From Nitrososphaeria archaeon (lineage in GTDB: Archaea > Thermoproteota > Nitrososphaeria > JACIWG01), in assembly GCA_963752255.1 (NCBI GenBank), contig CAVVXT010000002.1, forward strand, positions 1 through 64,000: a stretch of DNA of 64,000 nucleotides, written 5' to 3'. The notes beneath the pieces are model-generated. The model had not been told where the DNA came from. It ran no database searches and saw only the letters and a list, made by a program, of their open reading frames with translations. A program made the translations under genes and the position numbers. Shown here in pieces: positions 46,592 through 61,782 of the stretch (position 1 is its first letter; each line of letters opens with the position of its first letter).

Positions 46592-49066
46592 GTGAATGTT
46601 TTGAACAGTTCAGATAAAGATAAGGAACAGGAGTTCAGAGAAACAAATGTGGAAAATGGACTAGAAGCTCAAGAAGTCCAGAAGAGACTTGCGAAGTACG
46701 GATACAACGAGGTCCCTGAGAAGAAAGTAAGCTTTCTCGTAAGGCTTGGAAAACGTTTCTGGGGCATCGTGCCCTGGATGCTTGAAGCCACCGCCATCGT
46801 CACCTGACTACTAGGCAAGTATCCACAGACGCTCGTTATCGTGTTCCTCCTTCTATTCAACGCAGCAATGTCGCTGTGGCGAGAGAAAAGAGCGAGAACA
46901 GGCAATGGCTAGCCTGAAGCAGAGGCTGAGAATCCAGAGCAGAGTAAAAAGGGATGGAAAATGGTCAATTATTCCGGCTAGGGAACTTGTTCCCGGAGAC
47001 CTCGTCAGAGTCAGAGCAGGCGACCTTCTGCCAGCAGACATAAAAATCATTGACGGGTCTTTCGGCGTTGACCAATCAGCCCTCACTGGCGAATCTATAA
47101 TCGTGGAAAAGTCCACTGGAGAAGTAGCCTATTCCGGGTCGGCGGTCAAGCGCGGCGAAGCCACAGGCACAGTCGATGCCACAGGAACAAAAACCTACTT
47201 TGGGAAAACTGTTTCGCTGCTCGAACTCGCAAAACCGAAACTGCACATGGAGGAGGTAACAGTTAAAGTTGCACACCGACTTCTCATAATAGTGCTTGCA
47301 TCTCTTCTAGTCGTCTTCGTGTATGCTGTTCTGACAGGTTTCCCACTTGCCGTGCTGCTGCCGCTCGCAGGCGTACTCCTCGTAGCTTCTGTGCCAGTTG
47401 CAATGCCGACCATGTTCACTGTGAACATGGCGCTGGGCTCGTCAGCGCTTGCAAAGCAAGGAGTCCTTGTCACAAGACTCAGCGCAAGCGAGGACGCAGC
47501 AACAATGGATGTGCTATGCGCAGACAAGACAGGCACAATCACCATGAACAAGCTCTTCATTGAAGAGGAAATACCGACTAATGGATTCAGCAAAAGCGAC
47601 GTTTTGCTCTACGGGGCGCTCGCGTCGCAAGAAGCCAATCAAGACCCCATAGACATAGCGTTTCTGGCAGCTGCAGCGGAGGCTCACATCCCACTGGACG
47701 CTTACTCGCAGACGGAGTTCGTGCCGTTTGATCCTAAAACTAGAATGACAGAAGCCACAATCCAGAAATCTGGTGAAACATTCTTTGTGGGAAAAGGATC
47801 ATTCGACACCATATGCTCTTCCTGCAACCTGTCAGATAAGGAGACAAAAGAACTGTTCAAGCATGCTGAGGCGCTCTCAGCTAAGGGGCTAAGAGTGATC
47901 GCCGTTGCTAAGGGAGATGATCGGAGCAGGCTGAAGTTTGTCGGTCTCGCCGGAGTAGCTGACCGGGTAAGGGAAGACTCGCGTGGGACATTAGACCGGA
48001 TCCGTGATTTGGGCATATCTGTGAAGATGCTTACGGGTGATGCGCTTCCTATTGCAAGAAACATTGCTAAGCAGATAGGTCTAGGTGACAAGATAACTCG
48101 AATGTCGAAGATTGAAGAGATGCAGAGTCAAAGGGAGATTCTTGACTCCACCGTCGAAGAGAGTGACGGCATCGCTGAGATTTACCCTGAAGACAAGTTC
48201 ACGATAGTGAAGGCTCTTCAGGACCGAGGGCATGTGGTCGGAATGACGGGTGACGGATGAATGATGCTCCTGCTTTGGGGCAGGCGGAAGTTGGAATAGC
48301 GGTAAAGAATGCAACGGATATCGCCAAGGACTCGGCAAGTGCTGTGCTCACTGTTGAAGGGCTCGGAGGCATAATAGCTATGATTAAGACGTCCCGGACG
48401 ATTTACCAGAGAATCTACAGCTGGGCGTTGATGATGGTTTCCAGGAAGCTCCATATAGTCGGCTACATCGTTGTGATGATGTTTCTTACTCACTCCTTCA
48501 TGCTGTCAATAACGGGCACGGTGCTGCTGCTTTTCCTAGGTGACTTCGTCTCGATGTCGATATCGACAGATAACGTGCGGGTCTTCTTCTAAGCCTGATG
48601 AGTTCAATGTCTCACGGCTGTTCGCGGTCAGCGGATCATTAGGGTTACTGATGACGATTGAAAGCGCAATCTTTACAGTGGCGGCCTTATCGTACTTTGG
48701 GCTGAGTGGCAACATAGATAAGATCTACACCTTCGGTTTTGCTTACTTGAATCTTGCAGGGGTATTCACTCTTATGATCGTACGTGAGCGGAATTATTTC
48801 TGGAAATCGCGGCCCAGCAATTTTCTAAGCATCACAGTCACTGCGGAAATACTGTTTGTAATGCGATCTCGCTCTTAGGCTTCTTAGAGCTTGCTCCACT
48901 CGGCTACATGCCTGTACTCGCAATCTTAGGCTATACGCTAACAGTGACGTTTCTGATCAACGACCCAATCAAGGTATATCTCATACGCAAATTCAAGGGC
49001 AATTTGCCGTTATCCATAGCTCCTGTCGGCATAGTAAAAGCAATAGTCTCCAGTGACAAGAGATGA
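46592..49066 (+). pseudogene. Second type IIIA H+-ATPase with internal stop and frameshifts
   Basis: TGA at 46805 where the paralog has Trp; frameshifts near 46870, 48257, 48585 and 48863; DKTGT and MLTGD present. Confidence 0.85.
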
Positions 49067-49127
49067 TCATTATAATAGGTATACTATTCTTAGGCATCCA
49101 TCAATGACATTCTATCATATATTTAAT

Positions 49128-49290
49128 AGGTATTCGCACTTAATTATGGTCAGAAACCACCGGACATTCGTCCAAACTTAGTAGACATACTACTTGAGGG
49201 ATCGTCTAACACGCTCCCAACTTGGTCCTTAACCATGCCCTCATATCAAATGGCCCGTCGCGATCCAATAGATACTCATACCGTAGTTAC
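49128..49290 (-). mobile_element. IS end remnant, probably IS6-like
   Basis: 24-bp AGGTATTCGCACTTAATTATGGTC identical to 55281-55304; degenerate DRDGP resembling the DRGPWY motif. Confidence 0.5.
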
Positions 49291-49317
49291 CCATGCTAAT
49301 TCAGAAACCTTCGGATA

Positions 49318-49881
49318 TTGGCAAATCTTATAAGGAAGGTTAAGAGTTCCGCTGGTGGAGACGCAGGCGGAATGAACCGTCTTATTATCGCTGTAGTAGT
49401 CGTAGTTGTGGTTATCGTAGCAGGTTCGGCAATACTCTTCTCAGCGCTGAGTGCAGGCCAAGGCTCAGTGTCGATAGGATTCACCGATGCCCCAGCCCAA
49501 GGAGTGACCCACATCTACATAACAATCTCGAACATCATGCTTCAGGGCACGGGAAACACGAGCATGTCGTATAGTTCTGGGACGCAATTTGACCTTCTTG
49601 GCCTCGTCAACGTCACTGAGATGCTTGGCAGCACTCAGGTCCCCGCGGGTAATTACACCATGATCCGCTTTACCGTCACTTCGGCGGTTGCAACCATCTT
49701 GGGCTCAAATGCTACATTGAAGGTTCCCAGCGGCGAAATCAAGGTTCCGTTGACGTTCCAGGTCAGGAGTGGCGCGACAACCACAATCGTTCTCGACATC
49801 TCTGCCGATATGACTAACATAAGTGCGAGTGGGAACCTTCGTCCGGTGGTTACGGTGAAGTCCGTCAAGGGGCCGTCTTAA
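49318..49881 (+). CDS. DUF4382-like exported protein
   Basis: N-terminal TM; FTDAP, FDLL.L, PAGNYT.IRF, VPSG.IK, IVLD. Confidence 0.8.
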   Translation: MANLIRKVKSSAGGDAGGMNRLIIAVVVVVVVIVAGSAILFSALSAGQGSVSIGFTDAPAQGVTHIYITISNIMLQGTGNTSMSYSSGTQFDLLGLVNVTEMLGSTQVPAGNYTMIRFTVTSAVATILGSNATLKVPSGEIKVPLTFQVRSGATTTIVLDISADMTNISASGNLRPVVTVKSVKGPS

Positions 49882-50197
49882 CCCGGTCCTTGTGGGATGA
49901 TAGTCTTGTATCTTCGCATCGTGTAGTGGTGGAACTAAACTATTCCACCCTCCACTTTTCTGTCAAAGTCGGGCGCCTATCGGCTTGTGCCAATTATCGG
50001 AGAATTCGGGGAAAACGGTGAATCGTGAAATCATTCAAATAAAGAAAAGACAAAGAAATAGGCATATTTACCCGAAAAGAGGGGTTTAATGTGTTGCGAC
50101 GTATAGGTTCTGTTAACTTTGTTGCACGGTCAAAGTAATGCGATAGTAAAATTTATATACCAATTTATAATTTAAAGAAAAAAAAGGGTGAATTTGC

Positions 50198-53774: not shown

Positions 53775-55196
53775 ATGACGAATGACATCTCATTAAGGTG
53801 CACAAACTGCGGTGCAAGCAGTAGCTTTGATATTAATAGAAAACTATGTGACAGATGCGGAAACGGCCTTACTATAGAAATGGAGCGTACTCATGATTTT
53901 GAACCGCAGCAAAATGCGACTGGAATATGGAAGTATGCTAAGATATTACCAAGCTTAGATGAAGGATTTCGAATTTCCTTAGGGGAAGGCAACACGAGCC
54001 TACATGAAAGCAAGAAAACCAAAGATGAGATAAAGGTTGACAGACTATTGTTTAAGGATGAAACAGTGGAGCCAACAGGATCTTATCTAGACAGAAGCTC
54101 AGCACTATTCGCATCCATAGCCCTTTGTTTAGGGTACAGAAAGGTTGTCACGTATTCTACGGGAAATCTTGGTGCCTCACTTTCGGCGTATTCTTCCAAG
54201 GCAGGATTAAGGACACTGGTCTACATCAAACCCGGCATCGACCTCGGAAAACTCTATCAGATGATAGCGTACGGAGCAGAAGTGAAGGTTGTGCAAAATT
54301 TTAAGGAAAAATGGAAAGGATTAGAGGACACGGTTGTAGCTACGGAATATGACCCACTAATAAATGAAGCCAAGAAAACAATTATGTTAGAAATCTTCTA
54401 CCAGCTTAACAGAGATTTACCGGACTACATAATACTTCCTATGGGAGAGGGAGGCCTAGTTTATTCAACCTTTAAGACATTAAGTGAGCTCAAGACACTC
54501 GGTAAGAACAAAATTTACAGGACAAAAGTTGTTGGCGTACAGCCAGAGGGCTGTGCTCCTATAGTGAAAGCGTTTGAAAAAGGGCTGGACATCGTTGAGC
54601 CTGAAGATGGCCCTAGAACCCATATATTTGACCTAAGCGTGGCAAATCCTAAATTTGGAAATGCAGCTTTGAAGGCGATAAAGGAAACTAAAGGCGTCGC
54701 TATCTCGATTGGTGGAAACGAAATAATGGATGCCACTACCGCCTTAGCTGAAAACGAAGGCATTCTTGCTGAGCCAGCTGCCAGTCTAACCGTAGCTGGG
54801 CTGATGAAACTGAGAAAGACAGGAGAAATAGGAGGTGACTCTACGGTAGTCTGCGTCATAACCGGAAGCGGCCTTAAAGACCCTAGACTAATGAAAGAGA
54901 TAGCGCTTAGAAGATCAAACTTAGGCTCCTTGATAGAAGAGTTGAGTGGGGGTATGCTGTTAGGTGATACTAAACTAGCGACTCTGAAATTACTGTCTGA
55001 AAAAGATATGTACGGTTATCAGATTTGGAAGGAACTAAGAGAAAAACATGGTGTCGGCCTAAAGATTCCTACTGTCTATCAACATTTGTCTGAGCTAATC
55101 AAGGAAGGCTATGTAAAGAAGATTGAGTCAAAGATGGTTTCAGGAAGAAAGAGAGAATACTATTCATTAACGGATAAAGGAAGAGCTCTAGCTTAA
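53775..55196 (+). CDS. Threonine-synthase-like PLP-fold domain lacking the Schiff-base Lys, fused to a PadR-type winged HTH
   Basis: Zn ribbon, SLGEGNT, PTGSYLDR (canonical PTGSFKDR), STGN, EPA, TGSGLKD; C-terminal MYGYQIWKEL..IPTVYQHL..Y.LTDKG. Confidence 0.85.
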   Translation: MTNDISLRCTNCGASSSFDINRKLCDRCGNGLTIEMERTHDFEPQQNATGIWKYAKILPSLDEGFRISLGEGNTSLHESKKTKDEIKVDRLLFKDETVEPTGSYLDRSSALFASIALCLGYRKVVTYSTGNLGASLSAYSSKAGLRTLVYIKPGIDLGKLYQMIAYGAEVKVVQNFKEKWKGLEDTVVATEYDPLINEAKKTIMLEIFYQLNRDLPDYIILPMGEGGLVYSTFKTLSELKTLGKNKIYRTKVVGVQPEGCAPIVKAFEKGLDIVEPEDGPRTHIFDLSVANPKFGNAALKAIKETKGVAISIGGNEIMDATTALAENEGILAEPAASLTVAGLMKLRKTGEIGGDSTVVCVITGSGLKDPRLMKEIALRRSNLGSLIEELSGGMLLGDTKLATLKLLSEKDMYGYQIWKELREKHGVGLKIPTVYQHLSELIKEGYVKKIESKMVSGRKREYYSLTDKGRALA

Positions 55197-55280
55197 AGAA
55201 AATGATAAAAATTAAAAATGACCCCATGTGGGGTTATCTATTTTAACATCAAGCTTCTTGTATTCTACAGTAAAAAAGAA

Positions 55281-55500
55281 AGGTATTCGCACTTAATTAT
55301 GGTCGAAAACCATTGGAACCCGCTGACAAAAAGCGTCCAGCATAAAGCCGTGGCCAGCAGAAGCGTCTCTGTATCCAATAACCTAGATGTAAAGGCTATA
55401 AAACACGTCCTCGACTTGTTGACAAAAGAACTTACAAGACAAGTTAGGTAGCTAAGCTATAAAGGCTGATGTTCTATTCTAAGATCCAACGCTCGACTAT
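55281..55500 (-). mobile_element. IS end and transposase C-terminal remnant, probably IS6-like
   Basis: Same 24-bp terminus as 49128; degenerate IVERW...; C-terminus GFQWFSTIIKCEY. Confidence 0.5.
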
Positions 55501-55563
55501 AACAAAATCATTAGTAGAGGAGGGATCAATTTCGCTAAGTCAATCTTTTGTCGGACATTGCAT

Positions 55564-56215
55564 TTAAACTATTACGATCTTGAATAGCGCCTCAAAGGTG
55601 GACATTATCTCTTTTCCGTGAACTTCCTTGTTGATCAGGAACAGCATTGGAATACCTGATGTTGCCTGTATGTCTAAGGCATGTCTAGCCATCTTATATG
55701 CTTGCTCAAAGTTCGTCAGTAAAAAGATATCTGTCAGGTTATCGAAGACCACGGCAGCTGGTTCGAAACTGTTCTTTATGGTGATGAACGTACCCAAGAT
55801 TTGTGATATATCGCTTGCTGGGACGATTGTTTCTTTTCCATTTACCTTGAGGGTCTTAGAGGAGGAAGTCGAAAGGAAAACGTAATATACTTTTTGATAT
55901 CCACTAAAATCCGTATGCAATCGGCTTCCCATTCTTGTGAAGACATAGACCGTTTGGCAATAGGCTAGGCACTCCAATACGAAGTTTCTTACCCTTTGAT
56001 GGGTAGTCGGTTGATGGCTCGAACTTTAGGAGAATGGGGGTTTTAGTGAGTTCCTTATGACTGATTCTTATTAAGGAAGAGAAGATTTTCAAGTCCTTTT
56101 CAGTGGAACCTTCAGGAAGGAAGAGTGTTCTCAATTTCCCACCTGCAATTTCGTCTACCATCTGGTTCAATATCAAGAAGTTCTCATGCTTCTTGAATAC
56201 TTCTATAACGTGAAC
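55564..56215 (-). pseudogene. 5'-truncated paralog of the 7TM-DUF835 gene (DUF835-like part), frameshift near 55990
   Basis: VVFDNLTD.FLLTNFEQAYK, FLINKEVH; collinear with the C-terminus of 56516-58207. Confidence 0.8.
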
Positions 56216-56515
56216 TTCTTTATAGCTGATATATTTAATTGCGCTATGAGCAGGCAGAGTCCACGACTTACCTGTCGCAGTCCTAGAATATCGTGAGCGT
56301 TGAAAATTTGTGCATTATGAATAGAAGACGATCTCTATAAATTATACTGAAAGTGAACTAGGTTTATGCCGGCAACCAAGCATGATCTGTGAAACCTTTA
56401 AACCTGACCATCCGAGTCTGACGTATTTCATTTCTAATCAACAGGTCTAGAGGGTTTGAGTTCTTTATAAAACTTTTCTAACCTATAAATGGCATACTTT
56501 CTTGGCCAAAACCTC

Positions 56516-58207
56516 TTACGACCGACGGTTCGCTTGGAGAACGACTTTGAAAAGGATTTCGAATGCTGAAAGTGTGTTCTTGTCATGTACATCCTTATTT
56601 ATGAGAAACATCGAATGGGTTCTGGAATTGGCGATTATATCTAAAGCGTGCCTAGTTGCTTTGTATGTTTGCTCAAAGCTGGTCAGAAGAAGGACATCTG
56701 TAAGGCTGTCAAAAATTACTGCTGAAGTTTCATCGCTATTTTTTATTGTAATCAGTAAACCTAGCATCTGTGATAAGTCACTTACAGGAACGATTCTCTT
56801 TCCTTCACTCTCTTTTAAAATCTTCGAAGTTGATGGGGAAAGGAAAAGAAAGTCGATTCCAGCGACATCCTTTATATCCAAATACAAATTGCTTTCCTTT
56901 CTCGTAAACACATACACCTTTTCACCATTGGCTATGCATTCCATCACAAAATCCTTTACTCTTCCAGGGTAATTACTTCTAGCGGAGAACATTAGAAGAA
57001 TCTGCGATTCTTTAACATCCTCGTGAGTCATTTTCTCTCCGATTGAGAATCTTTCCATATCCTTCTCTGTGTATCCTGCTGGAACAAAGAGCAATTTTAG
57101 CTTTCCTTCTGAAGCCTTGGAAAGTATTTGTTTTTCTTTGAGATAGTTTTCATGTTTTTTGAGGGCCTCTATCAGGTCACCGCCCAAAAGGTCGAAAGTT
57201 TGGTCTATGAAACTAACTAAGCTTTCACTAAACTTAGGATCAAGTTCTCCATTCTCAAGGAGAGTCAAAGAAACGTCTATTAGGCAAGTTACATTTTTCG
57301 CTTCGATGGCCCCACCTTTTATGCCAATGTTTAATAAAAGTTTATCATTATCAAAACTTATTTTCTCATCAAGTCCGCACGTCTTCAAATAGGATAGCAG
57401 CTTGAAATATTTGCTTCCGAGTGCGTCCATAGGAGCTGTCATATTGCTGTAAAAGGCTTCAACAAGTTTAGCTACCTTGGGGGATATTTTGGTGTAGCCG
57501 ATTGGTATCAACGCAAATTCTTGTTCAGGTGGGGTGAATATTGCATAAGAAACTGTTGCGAAAGTTGCTAAGTTAAGAAACCCTCCCAAAGGAGGGAAGT
57601 TAGGATTAATTTGTATGAGATAAACATTCGTTATCGTTATACCTACTGCTTGGAATGCTATGAAAGCCAATAATATATACAGAAATTTTGTTTTAAGGCT
57701 TCTACTTGGAGCCTTCACCAATAGGTATATCAATATTAATATCATAATCCCCATATAAATAGGTGTACCAAGCAAAATTACCTCATAAGTGTTCAATTGA
57801 ACAATTGAGGAATAGCTCCACCCGAACACTCCCAAATGCATTTGATACTTTGTCAGAAATATGGAAATTAGACTGCCTGTAATACTTGGAAGGAGACACA
57901 GAATATTAAATATTCTGAACTTCCAAACATTAAGAAATGTCAAGAAATAGAAGCCAATTGTAAAAGGATAAACAATTCCAATGATACCAAATATTGCCAT
58001 TGCATCCATTGGTGTTTGAGCAGTTCGATTAAAGAAGACTAAAACTTCCCAACATGAAACAATTATTCCAAATAGAGATAGTGAAATCGTCACTGGATTA
58101 GCCTTGAACTTGTATAATAAAAAAAGGCTAGCTGCCGATGTAGCAATAGCGCATCCAATATACTGGATAGAGAGAAAAAGTAGAGAATAAAACGATAATT
58201 CAATCAT
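56516..58207 (-). CDS. Membrane sensor: N-terminal 7TM (HisKA_7TM-like) domain plus C-terminal inactive KaiC-like (DUF835-type) domain
   Basis: About seven hydrophobic helices in the first 225 aa; C-terminal VIFDSLTD, no Walker A, FLINKDVHD...FEILF. Confidence 0.75.
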   Translation of the reverse strand: MIELSFYSLLFLSIQYIGCAIATSAASLFLLYKFKANPVTISLSLFGIIVSCWEVLVFFNRTAQTPMDAMAIFGIIGIVYPFTIGFYFLTFLNVWKFRIFNILCLLPSITGSLISIFLTKYQMHLGVFGWSYSSIVQLNTYEVILLGTPIYMGIMILILIYLLVKAPSRSLKTKFLYILLAFIAFQAVGITITNVYLIQINPNFPPLGGFLNLATFATVSYAIFTPPEQEFALIPIGYTKISPKVAKLVEAFYSNMTAPMDALGSKYFKLLSYLKTCGLDEKISFDNDKLLLNIGIKGGAIEAKNVTCLIDVSLTLLENGELDPKFSESLVSFIDQTFDLLGGDLIEALKKHENYLKEKQILSKASEGKLKLLFVPAGYTEKDMERFSIGEKMTHEDVKESQILLMFSARSNYPGRVKDFVMECIANGEKVYVFTRKESNLYLDIKDVAGIDFLFLSPSTSKILKESEGKRIVPVSDLSQMLGLLITIKNSDETSAVIFDSLTDVLLLTSFEQTYKATRHALDIIANSRTHSMFLINKDVHDKNTLSAFEILFKVVLQANRRS

Positions 58208-59822
58208 GTAAGCTACTTTCCTTTAGCTCTTCCAAAATATCAGATCTTTCAGGTGCTATGATCTTCGGTGGTTTGAACTGTCCTAAAGGCACATTCTTTC
58301 TCGCTTGCCTCATCGCGTACCTTGTGAACGTCCCTCTTTCTAGGAATTCGACTTTTATCGCTTCAGAAGGTTTTTTAATATTAAAATCATGGACGTAGCT
58401 GCTGAACTCAGGCTGCACTGCAAGCATAGAATTAAATATCGCTTTTTCCGCTTCCCTCTCAGTTAAAGGCCACTCCCTCTCAAACAATATAATTAAAACC
58501 TCATTCGGTTTAATAGTCTTTGTAGCTGCCCACCGATCGCTTGCCTTGAAGCCTGCTTTGACTATGACTTCTGCCATAAGATCTTCGGTTAGACGGTAGT
58601 AGTCATAGATCATCATCATAGTTTGTGTTCTTCCTTCGAATGTAAAAACTGGCATTTCATCGTAGAAGTCAGAGACTCTAAAAATGTCGCGAATTCTATA
58701 CCTTACAAAGATAGAGTAAAACGGTGTGGCGACTAGTTCGTACATTTCACCCTTCTTAACTTCTGAAAGCTTTCTGACTTCGCCTTTCTCATCTAGGAAT
58801 TCGAAGTAGTTAGTCTTGAGATTGGGAAAGAAGCCTAGCTTCCTATCAGGTCTTCCAAACATGCAACTGCCAAGTTCTGTTGCCCCATATGAATTGAGTG
58901 GTTCGACTCCAAATTCTTCTTTGAAAAAGTCTGTGTAAAATCGTGCATCGGTACTGCCTATCAAGACCCCTCTAAGTGGCATTATCTCCCTCAGATCTTT
59001 CTTCCCACTGTTCCCAAGTTTTACAGAAAGTTGCTTTAAGAGTATGAGGAACTTCTTAGACATGCTAGGAGTAGCCTTGTAAGACGTAGACAAAAAATAC
59101 TGCGGATCCGAGAAATACTTACATGCCATATAAAGTAAAGCTCCGCTGCCCCCCATCATATGTATTTTATTGCCCTTCTCGATCATTTTAAGTGAAGTAT
59201 AGAATTTTTTCCCCATATCGGCTACGTTGTCCGTGTAGCTAATGGGGGGTATGAAGTTGATTATTTCATCCCAGAATCTGGTCGCCCAGCCACTGATATA
59301 AGGAACAGGTGCTACAAGATTAAGGGTATTTGGCTTCTCCTCGAGGACCTTTTCACCCCACTCTTTGGAGAGGGTCATTAAAACTAAAGCAATACTACTT
59401 GCCACATATCCCTCGTTGAACTTCTTGGTGTGAACTATCCATTTGCTTTCCCCCGTTGTACCAGTTGTTTTCATGCATAAAACAGGTTCATCTGGCAGGT
59501 ATCCATCAACTAAGCTAGAAGTTTTATTGAAGAGCCTTGTGTAGTAATCGTGAAGTAGCTCCCCTTCAGCTCTGGCCTCTCTTTTCTCCTCTTCCTTAAT
59601 TTCTTGGCCAAATGTTAAGAGAATTGGATAATCATCGTATTCTGTGATTGGTAAATCCTCTATTTTATTTGGTTTCTTTCCTTTGGCGATTGATTTCGCA
59701 GTCACCGTCCTACACCAAGCATCTAGGTGGTCTAAAGCAAGCCCCTCATTTAGATTTACCTGTGTGTTGAAATCTTGTTTATAGAAACTGCAATATTTTT
59801 CCCACAGGGAGCTGCTGTTCAA
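58200..59822 (-). CDS. GH3 family acyl-adenylate/acyl-amido synthetase
   Basis: PITEYDDY, TTGTTGESK, YGATE, YFEF, RYRIRD, EGR, GQFKPPK. Confidence 0.85.
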   Translation of the reverse strand: MNSSSLWEKYCSFYKQDFNTQVNLNEGLALDHLDAWCRTVTAKSIAKGKKPNKIEDLPITEYDDYPILLTFGQEIKEEEKREARAEGELLHDYYTRLFNKTSSLVDGYLPDEPVLCMKTTGTTGESKWIVHTKKFNEGYVASSIALVLMTLSKEWGEKVLEEKPNTLNLVAPVPYISGWATRFWDEIINFIPPISYTDNVADMGKKFYTSLKMIEKGNKIHMMGGSGALLYMACKYFSDPQYFLSTSYKATPSMSKKFLILLKQLSVKLGNSGKKDLREIMPLRGVLIGSTDARFYTDFFKEEFGVEPLNSYGATELGSCMFGRPDRKLGFFPNLKTNYFEFLDEKGEVRKLSEVKKGEMYELVATPFYSIFVRYRIRDIFRVSDFYDEMPVFTFEGRTQTMMMIYDYYRLTEDLMAEVIVKAGFKASDRWAATKTIKPNEVLIILFEREWPLTEREAEKAIFNSMLAVQPEFSSYVHDFNIKKPSEAIKVEFLERGTFTRYAMRQARKNVPLGQFKPPKIIAPERSDILEELKESSLHD

Positions 59823-59823
59823 T

Positions 59824-60522
59824 TTAAGCCATCTCTGGATAGGGGGTAATTATTATTCCATCCTGTGCACCTATTGTGTACTGGTAGAACTTCATGTCAT
59901 GGTTTGTGCCTCTCATTTTCAGTGCGACCATCCTCCTTTTTAGTTCACCTTTAACTGGTACTGTCTCGAATCGGATAATTCCGTCCGCGGTGAATTCTTC
60001 TACGCCTGATCCTAGACTGTCCTCTCCCCAAGGTGTCTCGGAAATAAGTATGCTTGTGCAGTCCAACTTTCTTAGTAATTTTTGAATTACTGAAAGCGAA
60101 CTTCTAATCTCCATCTTCTCTCCAAATGCAGCAGTTATTGCAGTTACAGAGTCGATGACTATCCTTTTCGCTCCGAAAACTCTAGTCTCATCTAATATCA
60201 TGTCAAGTATGGTTTCCAAGCTTCCTTTCTTCATCGCCGCAAGGTCGAATATCTTGATCATTCCTTGATTTTCTAAACTTTCGAAGTCCCATCCAAGTGC
60301 TAGCATCAAATGCTTAAAGACATCCGAGCTTTCATTGAAGGTTACAAAAACACCTTTCTCAGAGAAACGGGTAGCCCCGTTGTAAATGAACTGTGCCGCG
60401 GCGATGGTCTTTCCTGTTCCAGGGCCGCCCGCGAGCAGAATGACGGAATTCTTTGGAACCCCCCCGTTGAGGATCATATCTAGCGTATCTATGCCAGTGC
60501 GGACTCTTTCTATTGAAGCCAA
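59824..60522 (-). CDS. Single-domain KaiC/RAD55-like ATPase
   Basis: TGI..LD..L.GG.P, GGPGTGKT, F.E, RIVIDS, EEFTADGII, KMRGT.H. Confidence 0.92.
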   Translation of the reverse strand: MASIERVRTGIDTLDMILNGGVPKNSVILLAGGPGTGKTIAAAQFIYNGATRFSEKGVFVTFNESSDVFKHLMLALGWDFESLENQGMIKIFDLAAMKKGSLETILDMILDETRVFGAKRIVIDSVTAITAAFGEKMEIRSSLSVIQKLLRKLDCTSILISETPWGEDSLGSGVEEFTADGIIRFETVPVKGELKRRMVALKMRGTNHDMKFYQYTIGAQDGIIITPYPEMA

Positions 60523-61188
60523 CTAAGTCGTCCTTCCGCTTATATCAAACTTAAACTTAATTAAGTTGTCTGTGGATTCATTCTCCTCTTCTATTCTCAA
60601 TGATACCTTCCTATGGGTGATCTCCTCCATACCACCGCAGACAACTCCCCTGACCATAATTTGCGCAATTTTGTTCTTGAATGGTACCTTTGAGACTGTC
60701 AGTGTTCCCGTACCCTTTTCGTAATCTATTTCATTGTATACTGGTTCCCCCCAGCCTCTTAGTTTAAGAAGCTGTCCAAAGTTTAGGATAAGCTCGTTTT
60801 GACTTTTACCCGAATTACCTAACGTTTTCCCAATGCCCTTTCCGATCGACTGTCCTATGTTGAACAATATTATTGAGCCACCAACACCGAAGATATCCTT
60901 TATTGTCGACATTAAAATATCCCATTCGGATGCAGTGGTTTCGATAAAGTCCTCCACAGGTTTTTGTGTTCCCACCTTTACTAATTCTGTATTGATCAGC
61001 TCCCTATTGACTTCAACCCGGTAGCCTTTGATAATGCCATTTTCTTCCATCTTCTTTATTCTCCTCGCAACGGTTCTATCTGAGGATCCGACCTGTTGAG
61101 CGATCTCCTTACATTCAATGCGCGCGTTCTCCATTAGAATATCAAGAATCTTCAGGTCTATGTCATCGAAATTTAGATTACCCAACAT
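60523..61188 (-). CDS. Lrp/AsnC-type HTH fused to a V4R-like ligand-binding domain
   Basis: DDIDLKILDIL..NAR...EIA...SDRTV.RRIKKMEENGIIKGY; G..IG, RGWG, RG...G. Confidence 0.8.
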   Translation of the reverse strand: MLGNLNFDDIDLKILDILMENARIECKEIAQQVGSSDRTVARRIKKMEENGIIKGYRVEVNRELINTELVKVGTQKPVEDFIETTASEWDILMSTIKDIFGVGGSIILFNIGQSIGKGIGKTLGNSGKSQNELILNFGQLLKLRGWGEPVYNEIDYEKGTGTLTVSKVPFKNKIAQIMVRGVVCGGMEEITHRKVSLRIEEENESTDNLIKFKFDISGRTT

Positions 61189-61214
61189 ACCACTTGTATA
61201 TATGCCAATTAGCG

Positions 61215-61272
61215 TTATAAAAGACTTTCCTTGACATCATTTATGTCAATTTTTGACATTAATTTATGTTAA
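61215..61272 (-). promoter_or_regulatory. BRE/TATA with two tandem palindromes immediately upstream
   Basis: TTGACAT-N5-ATGTCAA (61231-61249) and TTGACAT-N6-ATGTTAA (61253-61272) precede the minus-strand GGAAAGTC-TTTTATAA. Confidence 0.7.
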
Positions 61273-61782
61273 TTATTGTGTAAATATTAACGATATTCAT
61301 ACTCCGATAATAAAGAGTGCTCTCTAAATCCCTCGTTGCTCTATAAACTTTTTCAACCTTATTTATTTTTGATTTAAACATGTCAGACAAGTAAAATTAG
61401 GTATTAGTCTAATATAAGATAATGGTTCCACAATAAAGAAAAATGATTTAAGGCCGCAATTAGTAGCGTTGAACTATTTCCGTTTGGTATTCTCAATCCT
61501 CGACTCTTTTATCTCCTCAGAAAGCTTGTTCCTTACATCCCAAACTTTTTTAGGATCCATGCTTACTTCCTTTATCCTTTTTTCCAAAATGTGTCCAAAG
61601 AACTTAACTACATCTAATAGATCTGAAAGATGACTTGTCAAAATATGATCTATCGGTACTTCTTCATTATTTTTGTTTTCATAAATTGAATTATTTCTTC
61701 AGCAGTTTTCTTGGACTCAATATCCTTCCATAGCACTATATTCTGATATACATTCACAAAGATTTTGTATTGGGATGACACT

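Follow-up and report, generated by a model that had tools for sequence, protein, structure and literature searches.

Two kinds of system stand among the closest described counterparts of the locus reported here. In CqsA/CqsS and LuxM/LuxN, an autoinducer synthase gene lies beside the gene of a membrane sensor kinase. In archaea, neighbourhoods of KaiC, DUF835 and winged helix-turn-helix (wHTH) genes were reportedly predicted to be signalling modules by Makarova, Galperin and Koonin in 2017 (mBio), a study whose central idea PMC5847659 quotes. Archaeal signalling outside two-component systems is mostly prediction, with KaiC-like ATPases and DUF835 proposed as its backbone. The present locus lies in a stretch of 64,000 nucleotides (nt) from a Nitrososphaeria archaeon (positions 1 to 64,000 of contig CAVVXT010000002.1, assembly GCA_963752255.1), which was analysed as a whole and is referred to as the window. 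On its minus strand, four genes follow each other head to tail: a regulator gene encoding a wHTH and a V4R-type fold (60523-61188, 221 amino acids (aa)), a single-domain KaiC gene (59824-60522, 232 aa), a GH3-like ligase gene (58200-59822, 540 aa) and the gene of a sensor (56516-58207, 563 aa) that combines a seven-helix transmembrane (7TM) domain, a cytoplasmic domain here called MID and a DUF835 domain. The intergenic gaps, re-derived from the open reading frames (ORFs), are 0, 1 and -8 nt, identical to those given in the original prediction, which had been made from the sequence alone. The evidence points to a small-molecule signalling module with the GH3-type ligase and the 7TM+MID sensor as its core.

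As in CqsA/CqsS and LuxM/LuxN, the enzyme gene adjoins that of a membrane receptor with several helices, and the product would be bound by the receptor's transmembrane domain; the form of the module found in Bathyarchaeia has a true histidine kinase and a receiver. The systems differ in the enzyme, which here belongs to the GH3/ANL type and is neither a pyridoxal phosphate (PLP) transferase nor LuxM, and in the transmitter, which in the window is DUF835/KaiC and not a kinase; the signal, moreover, is putative here. The ligase is no member of the known synthase families LuxI, LuxM, CqsA and LuxS, with Pfam giving GH3 and AMP-binding models only. The original prediction had compared the locus with LuxI/LuxR. 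The linkage of an enzyme gene to a receptor gene agrees with this comparison, but since the receptor sits in the membrane, the better analogue is a synthase encoded next to a membrane-bound sensor kinase, as in CqsA/CqsS or LuxM/LuxN.

The likeness to the archaeal KaiC-like modules lies in a single-domain KaiC that occurs together with a sensor-fused inactivated KaiC (DUF835) and a wHTH protein. Here, however, a GH3 ligase is found inside the operon and tracks the sensor rather than KaiC, and KaiC is not a hub, there being one intact KaiC and one DUF835 partner. The passages of PMC5847659 on KaiC/DUF835 signalling name no ligand-making enzyme, ligand or input. The component families are known, and what appears to be new is the pairing of a GH3 ligase with a 7TM+MID receptor whose transmitter can be either a kinase or of the KaiC type. 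In line with the claim that the combination had no characterised precedent, no earlier description of an archaeal GH3 tied to a sensor was found in the literature, though the supplementary neighbourhood tables of Makarova 2017 and of PMC5847659 may already list the context. The locus provides a sensor to which an enzyme is obligately linked, and this enzyme limits the likely chemistry of the sensor's ligand; there is also an orthologous histidine-kinase form that can be assayed by autophosphorylation. The range of GH3 enzymes, familiar from the control of plant hormones and from a single lipid pathway in bacteria, is moreover widened to several archaeal phyla and a signalling context.

The conservation of the locus was assessed at increasing phylogenetic distance. 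Of the nine other genomes of the family, eight contained a match to the GH3 ligase, compared with none of 31 genomes that represent the remaining families of the class, and the four-gene order was kept, at 41-98% protein identity, in all seven same-family loci with enough context (7/7), showing that the arrangement is not due to chance. A scan using one genome per species yielded 34 GH3 loci, and counts out of 35 refer to these together with the window. The records are titled Nitrososphaeria/Thaumarchaeota, Bathyarchaeia, Hadarchaeota, Brockarchaeota, Thermoplasmata and Thermoprotei, together with three titled uncultured archaeon or Nitrososphaerota and two titled as bacterial metagenome-assembled genomes (MAGs). 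ORFs were called, clustered and searched with hidden Markov models (HMMs) of the 7TM and MID parts, and a 7TM+MID gene was found to adjoin GH3 directly in 32 of the 35 loci. In the remaining three (L026, L027 and L037), the contig ends on the side where the nearest relatives carry the sensor. The two genes run in the same direction in some loci, with stop and start codons that overlap (an overlap seen in 15/35), and diverge in others, and the pair persists at 37-61% GH3 identity and 18-46% sensor identity in records titled as five archaeal groups.

A similar picture was obtained when an independent sample of 401 genomes of the phylum was searched with GH3 and sensor profiles. Strong GH3 matches occurred in 19 genomes and sensor matches in 18, and all 19 full sensor matches were located on a GH3 contig, within about 170 nt of the GH3 match. 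The sole strong GH3 match that lacks a sensor breaks off 3 nt before its 6864-nt contig ends, and no orphan sensor was found in the 401 genomes, the one partial match (47 bits) covering profile positions 310-356 only. Two weak partial matches to the GH3 profile (3.4e-22 and 2.3e-14) lacked a sensor and probably represent other enzymes. An enzyme gene beside the receptor gene was thus present in all 32 scoreable loci and in 19 out of 19 cases in the phylum sample. The results demonstrate that the conserved core consists of the GH3 ligase and its dedicated 7TM+MID sensor, which are inherited as a unit across phyla, and it is very likely that the two also form one functional unit.

The other two genes of the operon behave differently. 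KaiC lies directly upstream of GH3 in 13 of the 35 loci, and the HTH-V4R gene precedes KaiC in 11, meaning that both are lineage-specific and represent one of at least two output wirings. The original prediction, which had named conserved linkage of GH3 to 7TM, KaiC and V4R genes as a test of itself, was consequently borne out for the 7TM sensor (32/32 scoreable loci) but not for KaiC and HTH-V4R, and the idea of a four-part circuit as the conserved unit had to be given up, all the more since the sensor of Bathyarchaeia is fused to HisKA+HATPase_c. The transmitters were compared in an alignment of 24 of the 32 adjacent sensors, leaving out near-duplicates (L020, L022, L023, L041 and L042) and cut (L028, L029) or split (L030) genes. 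Eight of the 24 carry HisKA+HATPase_c, and ten score for DUF835/DUF7090; in addition, the sensors of L039, L040, L043 and L049 align to the DUF835 region of the window's sensor by tblastn. In Bathyarchaeia, the same sensor type ends in HisKA+HATPase_c and a receiver protein is encoded nearby (e.g. the kinase and REC protein of L024), while Pfam searches detected no HisKA, HATPase_c or REC in the window's four proteins. The genes converging on GH3 in kinase-type loci encode a stand-alone receiver, a protein of ~100 aa and a small four-helix membrane protein. In the Hadarchaeota loci, GH3 is preceded by a receiver gene, and a strongly scoring DUF835 forms the C-terminal end of the sensor.

In a tree of 34 GH3 sequences and a bacterial outgroup, which omits L049 because of its short length, the kinase-linked GH3s, 14 in number, cluster together with an SH-aLRT support of 100. 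Within this clade, L033 and L051 are co-directional and the others divergent. The DUF835-linked GH3s fall into five well-supported clades and a lone long branch (L047), with an unresolved base. As the kinase-linked GH3s group in a single clade, one transmitter swap is enough to explain the pattern. The ligase and its dedicated sensor nevertheless plug into either of two transmitters, a histidine kinase or DUF835, and the occurrence of the same 7TM+MID sensor with either HisKA-HATPase or DUF835 constitutes direct comparative evidence that DUF835 takes the position otherwise held by a kinase transmitter.

The sensor has a three-part architecture. Its AlphaFold2 (AF2) model, with a predicted local distance difference test (pLDDT) score of 84.6, displays seven helices, a beta-hairpin at residues 120-135 and a three-part fold. 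The 7TM domain (aa 1-228; 57524-58207, minus strand) is predicted to be nearly all embedded in the membrane, with one short hairpin outside. Loops 1, 3 and 5 have lysine and arginine counts of 3.2, 2.6 and 3.3, compared with 0.1-1.4 for the opposite side, which places the N-terminus outside and the MID and DUF835 domains inside. The bundle resembles folds of the G-protein-coupled receptor (GPCR) type with VIA Z scores of 15-18, though a shared fold of such kind shows no function. It is probably a distant relative of HisKA_7TM (PF16927): the window's sensor gave no match, while 5 of the 24 aligned relatives did so at E <= 0.1 (best 8.5e-7), and the L047 sensor reached 22.1 bits against a cut-off of 28.6. 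What is shared with the HisKA_7TM kinases is the seven-helix N-terminal sensor and, in 8/24 relatives, the HisKA+HATPase_c transmitter; the present subfamily differs in having MID and motifs of its own (a GW hairpin, G189, N194 and GG at 208-209). Of the 7TM residues conserved in at least 80% of the sequences, most are found in the outer helix halves and outer loops, namely Y16, W53, F58, R61, G129, W130, Y132, G189, N194, G208 and G209.

MID (aa 229-366; 57110-57523, minus strand) is a cytoplasmic alpha/beta domain without a known family, conserved in each of the 24 aligned sensors. Searches with it gave nothing better than E 0.015 in Pfam or E 0.47 among PDB sequences and no match in the atlas search; fold searches with the whole sensor were dominated by the KaiC-like or the 7TM part. 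A word-based search with aa 1-366 gave five proteins and was superseded by a scan of a 7TM+MID HMM against 1.84 billion representatives (proteins without genomic context), which yielded 87 proteins at E <= 1e-30. Among the matches listed, whole-looking proteins match both parts and many others are fragments of one end, while proteins at E of ~1e-9 to 1e-13 align to just the 7TM part. One canonical HisKA_7TM-DUF835 protein, lacking MID, is encoded a few genes from a GH3-sensor pair (L045:4906-6066). MID thus appears to track GH3, being found only in GH3-linked sensors as judged by these sequence comparisons. A complex prediction of 7TM+MID with GH3 scored 0.00, which says nothing either way.

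The remainder of the sensor (aa 367-563; 56516-57109, minus strand) comprises a linker and a C-terminal domain scoring 29.7 bits for DUF7090 (cut-off 27) and 27.4 bits for DUF835 (cut-off 33.1), for which a Hadarchaeota orthologue reaches 82.3 bits. Foldseek matched its predicted fold to FlaH (4yds), KaiC, RecA and PH0284 at E 1.5e-3 to 7e-3 over ~170-190 columns, and the alignment contains no Walker A (GxxGxGK[ST]) at the corresponding place of the DUF835 domain. The model therefore identifies the domain as a putative inactivated KaiC, with a RecA/KaiC-like fold but no P-loop. This agrees with PMC5847659, passages of which list DUF835 as 'iKaiC' and record REC-DUF835 fusions.

The GH3 assignment was upheld, although the relationship is distant. 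The ligase exceeds the cut-off of only one GH3-named Pfam model, GH3_M (PF23571; 43.9 bits, cut-off 23.6), remaining under those of GH3_C (17.7 vs 23.6) and AMP-binding (16.5 vs 29.9), and it matches none of the NCBIfam models. A profile of 17 sequences of the subfamily retrieved ten distinct PDB sequences at E <= 0.01, all of them plant GH3s, at E values ranging from 4e-11 to 5e-7 (JAR1, 4e-11, and GH3.12, 9e-11, being the best). Plant GH3s (JAR1, GH3.12 and the auxin-conjugating enzymes) are hence the only solved relatives. Three nucleotide motifs and the C-terminal GQ-K-P motif of the plant enzymes are kept in the ligase subfamily, whereas significant alignment is confined to the C-terminal half. 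The motifs read KTTGTTGESK (K118-TTGTTGES-K127), YGATE (Y312-GAT-E316) and RYRIRD (R374-Y-RIR-D379), and their key positions, K118, T119, G121, T122, G124, K127, Y312, E316, Y375 and D379, are invariant in the 17 sequences. Because of this invariance, the ligase looks active, its catalytic motifs being retained. The receptors of the plant hormone pathways in which GH3s act are unrelated soluble proteins. The ligase is cytoplasmic and present in a single copy in this genome, and its subfamily comprises 37 protein clusters at 40-97% identity.

The three motifs correspond to the GH3 nucleotide motifs listed for JAR1 and OlsH in passages of PMC12493201. According to the same source, OlsH of Singulisphaera is GH3-like and makes N-acyl-ornithine, which places amphipathic conjugates within the known chemistry of the family. 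OlsH is described there as a prokaryotic, ATP-dependent, amide-forming enzyme like that proposed here, with divergent but recognisable motifs; its operon, however, is described as holding the O-acyltransferase OlsI and not a sensor, and the survey described in the paper covered bacterial genomes only (PMC12493201). In one genome of the same family as the window's (L022 2122-3748; G006:C9), the GH3 gene is split into two frames (aa 1-43 and 43-537), and in a Bathyarchaeial locus (L030 5521-7861), the sensor kinase is spread over two ORFs (266 and 475 aa); both cases are either assembly errors or decay.

From these elements, a mechanism can be proposed in which the ligase makes the ligand that the sensor reads, a reading to which we assign a probability of roughly 40%. 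The cytoplasmic ligase would adenylate a hydrophobic carboxylic acid and join it to an amine or amino acid, and the amphipathic conjugate would reach the conserved pocket in the bundle's outer half. Occupancy would be relayed via MID to the C-terminal inactivated KaiC (DUF835) domain, which would modulate the operon's KaiC ATPase; KaiC would in turn act on the HTH-V4R regulator, whose binding to the TGTCA palindrome upstream of its own gene would feed back on the operon. In the Bathyarchaeia variant, the pair would instead feed a classical histidine kinase and receiver. We infer the conjugation chemistry, the identity of product and ligand, the DUF835-KaiC-regulator relay and the operator from the features described above. 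That the module serves archaeal cell-to-cell or autocrine signalling, with an acyl-amino-acid-type signal made by GH3, a GPCR-like seven-helix receptor and a kinase or KaiC relay, is a more doubtful proposition. If true, the signalling network proposed around KaiC would gain its first defined ligand and receptor, and DUF835 would be shown to stand in for a kinase transmitter.

Several observations weigh against ligand synthesis by the ligase and the relay built on it. MID, the domain that tracks GH3, is cytoplasmic, so that direct coupling of enzyme and sensor, or sensing of an intracellular product, fits at least as well; this is the main point in favour of direct coupling. No exporter gene is conserved with the pair across the surveyed loci, and identity between the subfamily and the closest bacterial GH3 is no higher than 23%. 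The HMMs behind the adjacency count were built from the same sensor proteins, which leaves tblastn with the window's sensor as the independent support. Furthermore, kin share gene order by descent, and the 32 loci are therefore not 32 independent observations, and as a single exchange between histidine kinase and DUF835 suffices, the independence of the linkage from the transmitter rests on few events. Finally, the exact palindrome is restricted to this genus, with other genera retaining TGTC cores alone. Shared descent could also mean that GH3 is a mere passenger, brought beside the sensor by common ancestry and block transfer without any functional link, and the small size of the family (37 clusters) would suit this. 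The survival of the pair at such low identities in five archaeal groups, through changes of orientation and of transmitter, and the lack of orphans in 401 genomes, make this very improbable.

As to the direction of the link, GH3 may produce the signal, eliminate it or be under the control of the sensor. A possible alternative to synthesis is that the 7TM domain detects a hydrophobic carboxylic acid of external or internal origin which GH3 then conjugates, thereby removing, inactivating or assimilating it and setting its level much as plant GH3s do for auxin. Adjacency and co-occurrence are as compatible with such substrate sensing as with synthesis. A conserved site in the bundle's outer half is appropriate for a compound from outside, and in its V4R fold the regulator is similar to proteins that sense aromatic xenobiotics; plant group II GH3s are described as inactivating auxin by conjugation. 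Yet detoxifying or catabolic enzymes usually also occur without a sensor, which was the case on no scoreable contig here, and no transporter, downstream catabolic gene or DNA-binding output is conserved across the surveyed loci. We regard this reading as less likely than synthesis. The absence of a DNA-binding protein conserved in all surveyed loci also argues against GH3 as a mere transcriptional target. The probability appears lower still for two further readings. The sensor could switch the ligase via MID, with the product acting as an intracellular messenger read by V4R or other partners: MID occurs only in GH3-linked sensors and is missing from canonical HisKA_7TM-DUF835 proteins, the codon overlap in 15/35 loci suggests translation in fixed proportion, and V4R domains bind small hydrophobic ligands in the matched solved structures. 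Against this, V4R is present in 11/35 loci only, and no GH3-sensor fusion was found among longer proteins, which is weak evidence. To a similarly low degree, it is conceivable that the ligase makes a lipo-amino-acid of the membrane while the 7TM domain senses the membrane state and adjusts ligase output, a homeostatic loop whose logic is comparable to that of DesK/Des. The sensor is almost wholly embedded in the membrane with one short outside hairpin, and OlsH, the only characterised prokaryotic GH3-like enzyme, is described as making N-acyl-ornithine for a stress-related membrane lipid (PMC12493201), but no OlsI-like acyltransferase is conserved beside the pair in the surveyed loci, and the subfamily is very distant from bacterial GH3s. 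A role in defence was considered and dropped: PADLOC assigns no family to GH3 or the sensor, and the regulator and KaiC yield nothing beyond generic HTH matches and a P-loop match.

Returning to the relay proposed for the window, the KaiC protein matches PF06745 with 212.6 bits (6.5e-63, aa 7-227) and has an intact Walker A (GPGTGKT), in agreement with the original assignment, while staying below every NCBIfam equivalog cut-off. A circadian KaiC was rejected, as the protein has one domain in 232 aa and is far under the equivalog scores (NF006799, 159 vs 408; TIGR02655, 112 vs 546). It is the only intact strong KaiC match in this genome, and the only DUF835-like regions are the sensor's own domain and an adjacent fragment, for which reason KaiC and DUF835 seem to form a closed pair in this genome and no hub. 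A second gene of the KaiC family (G000:C10:102883-103481, 137 bits) is broken by two TAA stops.

The regulator begins with a wHTH of the AsnC/Lrp type (aa 8-54, minus strand; HTH_24, 1.2e-16; HTH_AsnC, 5.3e-15), followed by a C-terminal domain (aa ~72-221) for which structure prediction gives a V4R/Bet3-type fold. The AF2 model was built on 13 orthologues and has a mean pLDDT of 71.9; per 10-residue block, the V4R-type domain reaches ~67-88 over aa 81-200, with lower values at the ends. Foldseek matched the model to the phenol-sensor domains of MopR/DmpR/PoxR at E 2.5e-5, and VIA Z scores were 14.5-15.7 for the same proteins, with a root-mean-square deviation (rmsd) of 2.5-3.5 over 142-148 residues (MopR: Z 15.7, rmsd 3.1 over 145), 12.4 for the V4R protein MJ1460 (2oso; rmsd 4.2 over 140 residues) and 11-12.4 for Bet3/TPC6. 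At the sequence level, V4R (PF02830) was absent from the best 25 of 26 Pfam families at E <= 1 for the window's regulator and from the 25 listed families matched by most of the 13 regulators, and the regulator profile gave a weak match to MJ1460 among PDB sequences (E 0.059). The predicted fold (Z 12.4-15.7 over 140-148 residues) and its fusion to a DNA-binding domain resemble the V4R regulators MopR/DmpR/PoxR, MJ1460 and MsvR. The HTH here is of the AsnC/Lrp type, and the conserved cysteine cluster that passages of PMC5847659 note for V4R, PoxR and MopR is lacking, no invariant or nearly invariant cysteine being present in the 13 aligned regulators. The 'HTH-V4R' label thus holds at the level of the predicted fold. 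Overall, the domain assignments of the original prediction stood, two of them just at fold or distant-homology level, and with its observation confirmed, its interpretation of the locus was partly supported.

Upstream of the regulator gene, a candidate operator (61231-61259, minus strand) consists of a perfect palindrome, ATGTCAA-AAA-TTGACAT (61243-61259), detected by an inverted-repeat search, and a third half-site (61231-61237) read from the sequence. A TATA-like box (~61215-61222) lies between the candidate operator and the regulator's ATG at 61188, with the palindrome about 33 nt from the box. The form ATGTCA-N5-TGACAT, with 12 specified bases, occurs twice in the 2.1-Mb genome against 0.2 expected occurrences, and in the 140 nt upstream of the regulator gene, TGTC/GACA cores total 38 vs 11.4 expected over 12 loci. 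The regulator may bind at this site. The second exact copy (G000:C2:67040-67056; L055 6041-6057) is 5.8 kb off, outside the window, between two divergent genes for pilin-like proteins with class III signal peptides and at a similar distance from a TATA-like box. A palindrome regulon including the pilin genes was dropped as evidence because the orthologous pilin promoter of the sister genome G001 (L057 1350-1500) lacks the palindrome and G001's second site precedes unrelated genes; the reversed control pattern gave one match per strand.

Downstream of the sensor gene, on the minus strand, a second, diverged DUF835 remnant with no 7TM or MID (55564-56176) is split between two ORFs in different frames (55904-56176, 90 aa; 55564-55977, 137 aa). 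The truncated second receptor copy described in the original prediction was thus recovered, with the two out-of-frame ORFs matching the last ~200 residues of the 563-aa sensor, i.e. the DUF835 domain alone. The fragment scores 30.3 bits for DUF835 (cut-off 33.1) and is ~54% identical in amino acids to the DUF835 domain of the neighbouring sensor. It has no DNA-level match elsewhere in the genome, including the adjacent sensor gene, and a recent tandem duplication of the sensor was rejected on this ground. The 856-bp segment that holds it (55597-56452) is missing from a closely related strain, being skipped cleanly in contigs of the runs X1 and X2 (~97.7% identical to the window), which join 55596 to 56453 with 3 shared letters, while a third run holds identical pieces of the segment; the same-genus genome G001 loses synteny at 56453. 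The fragment is a variable remnant outside the conserved module.

Some neighbours of the pair in other lineages are also worth recording. In Bathyarchaeia, a four-helix membrane protein of ~130 aa ending in WSQF and the helical protein of ~100 aa are encoded between GH3 and the receiver (L024 8404-9097), with equivalents in 11-12 Bathyarchaeial loci and no Pfam match for either. The ~100-aa protein is weakly similar (28% over 97 aa, E 1e-4) to a protein that replaces HTH-V4R upstream of KaiC (L044 6855-7271, L048 6730-7122). In Hadarchaeota, a gene of ~290-320 aa directly follows the sensor (L035 8190-9062, L036 11127-12011, L038 8639-9610). The L038 copy scores as a UbiA-family prenyltransferase with 81 bits, and the L035 and L036 copies are its BLAST-cluster homologues, which may hint at a prenylated or aromatic acid as substrate. 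A histidine kinase gene comes after the UbiA-like gene in these loci, and L038 has KaiC genes too. Two near-identical contigs titled as bacterial MAGs (L045 3688-6066, L046 8734-11112) both carry the GH3-sensor pair, with a class I/II aminotransferase and a canonical HisKA_7TM-DUF835 protein (75 and 48 bits) without MID downstream; in view of their DUF835 content, these contigs may be archaeal. In the window itself, G+C is 0.36-0.43 over 55000-61500, where the cluster lies, and 0.46-0.48 at 48000-50000.

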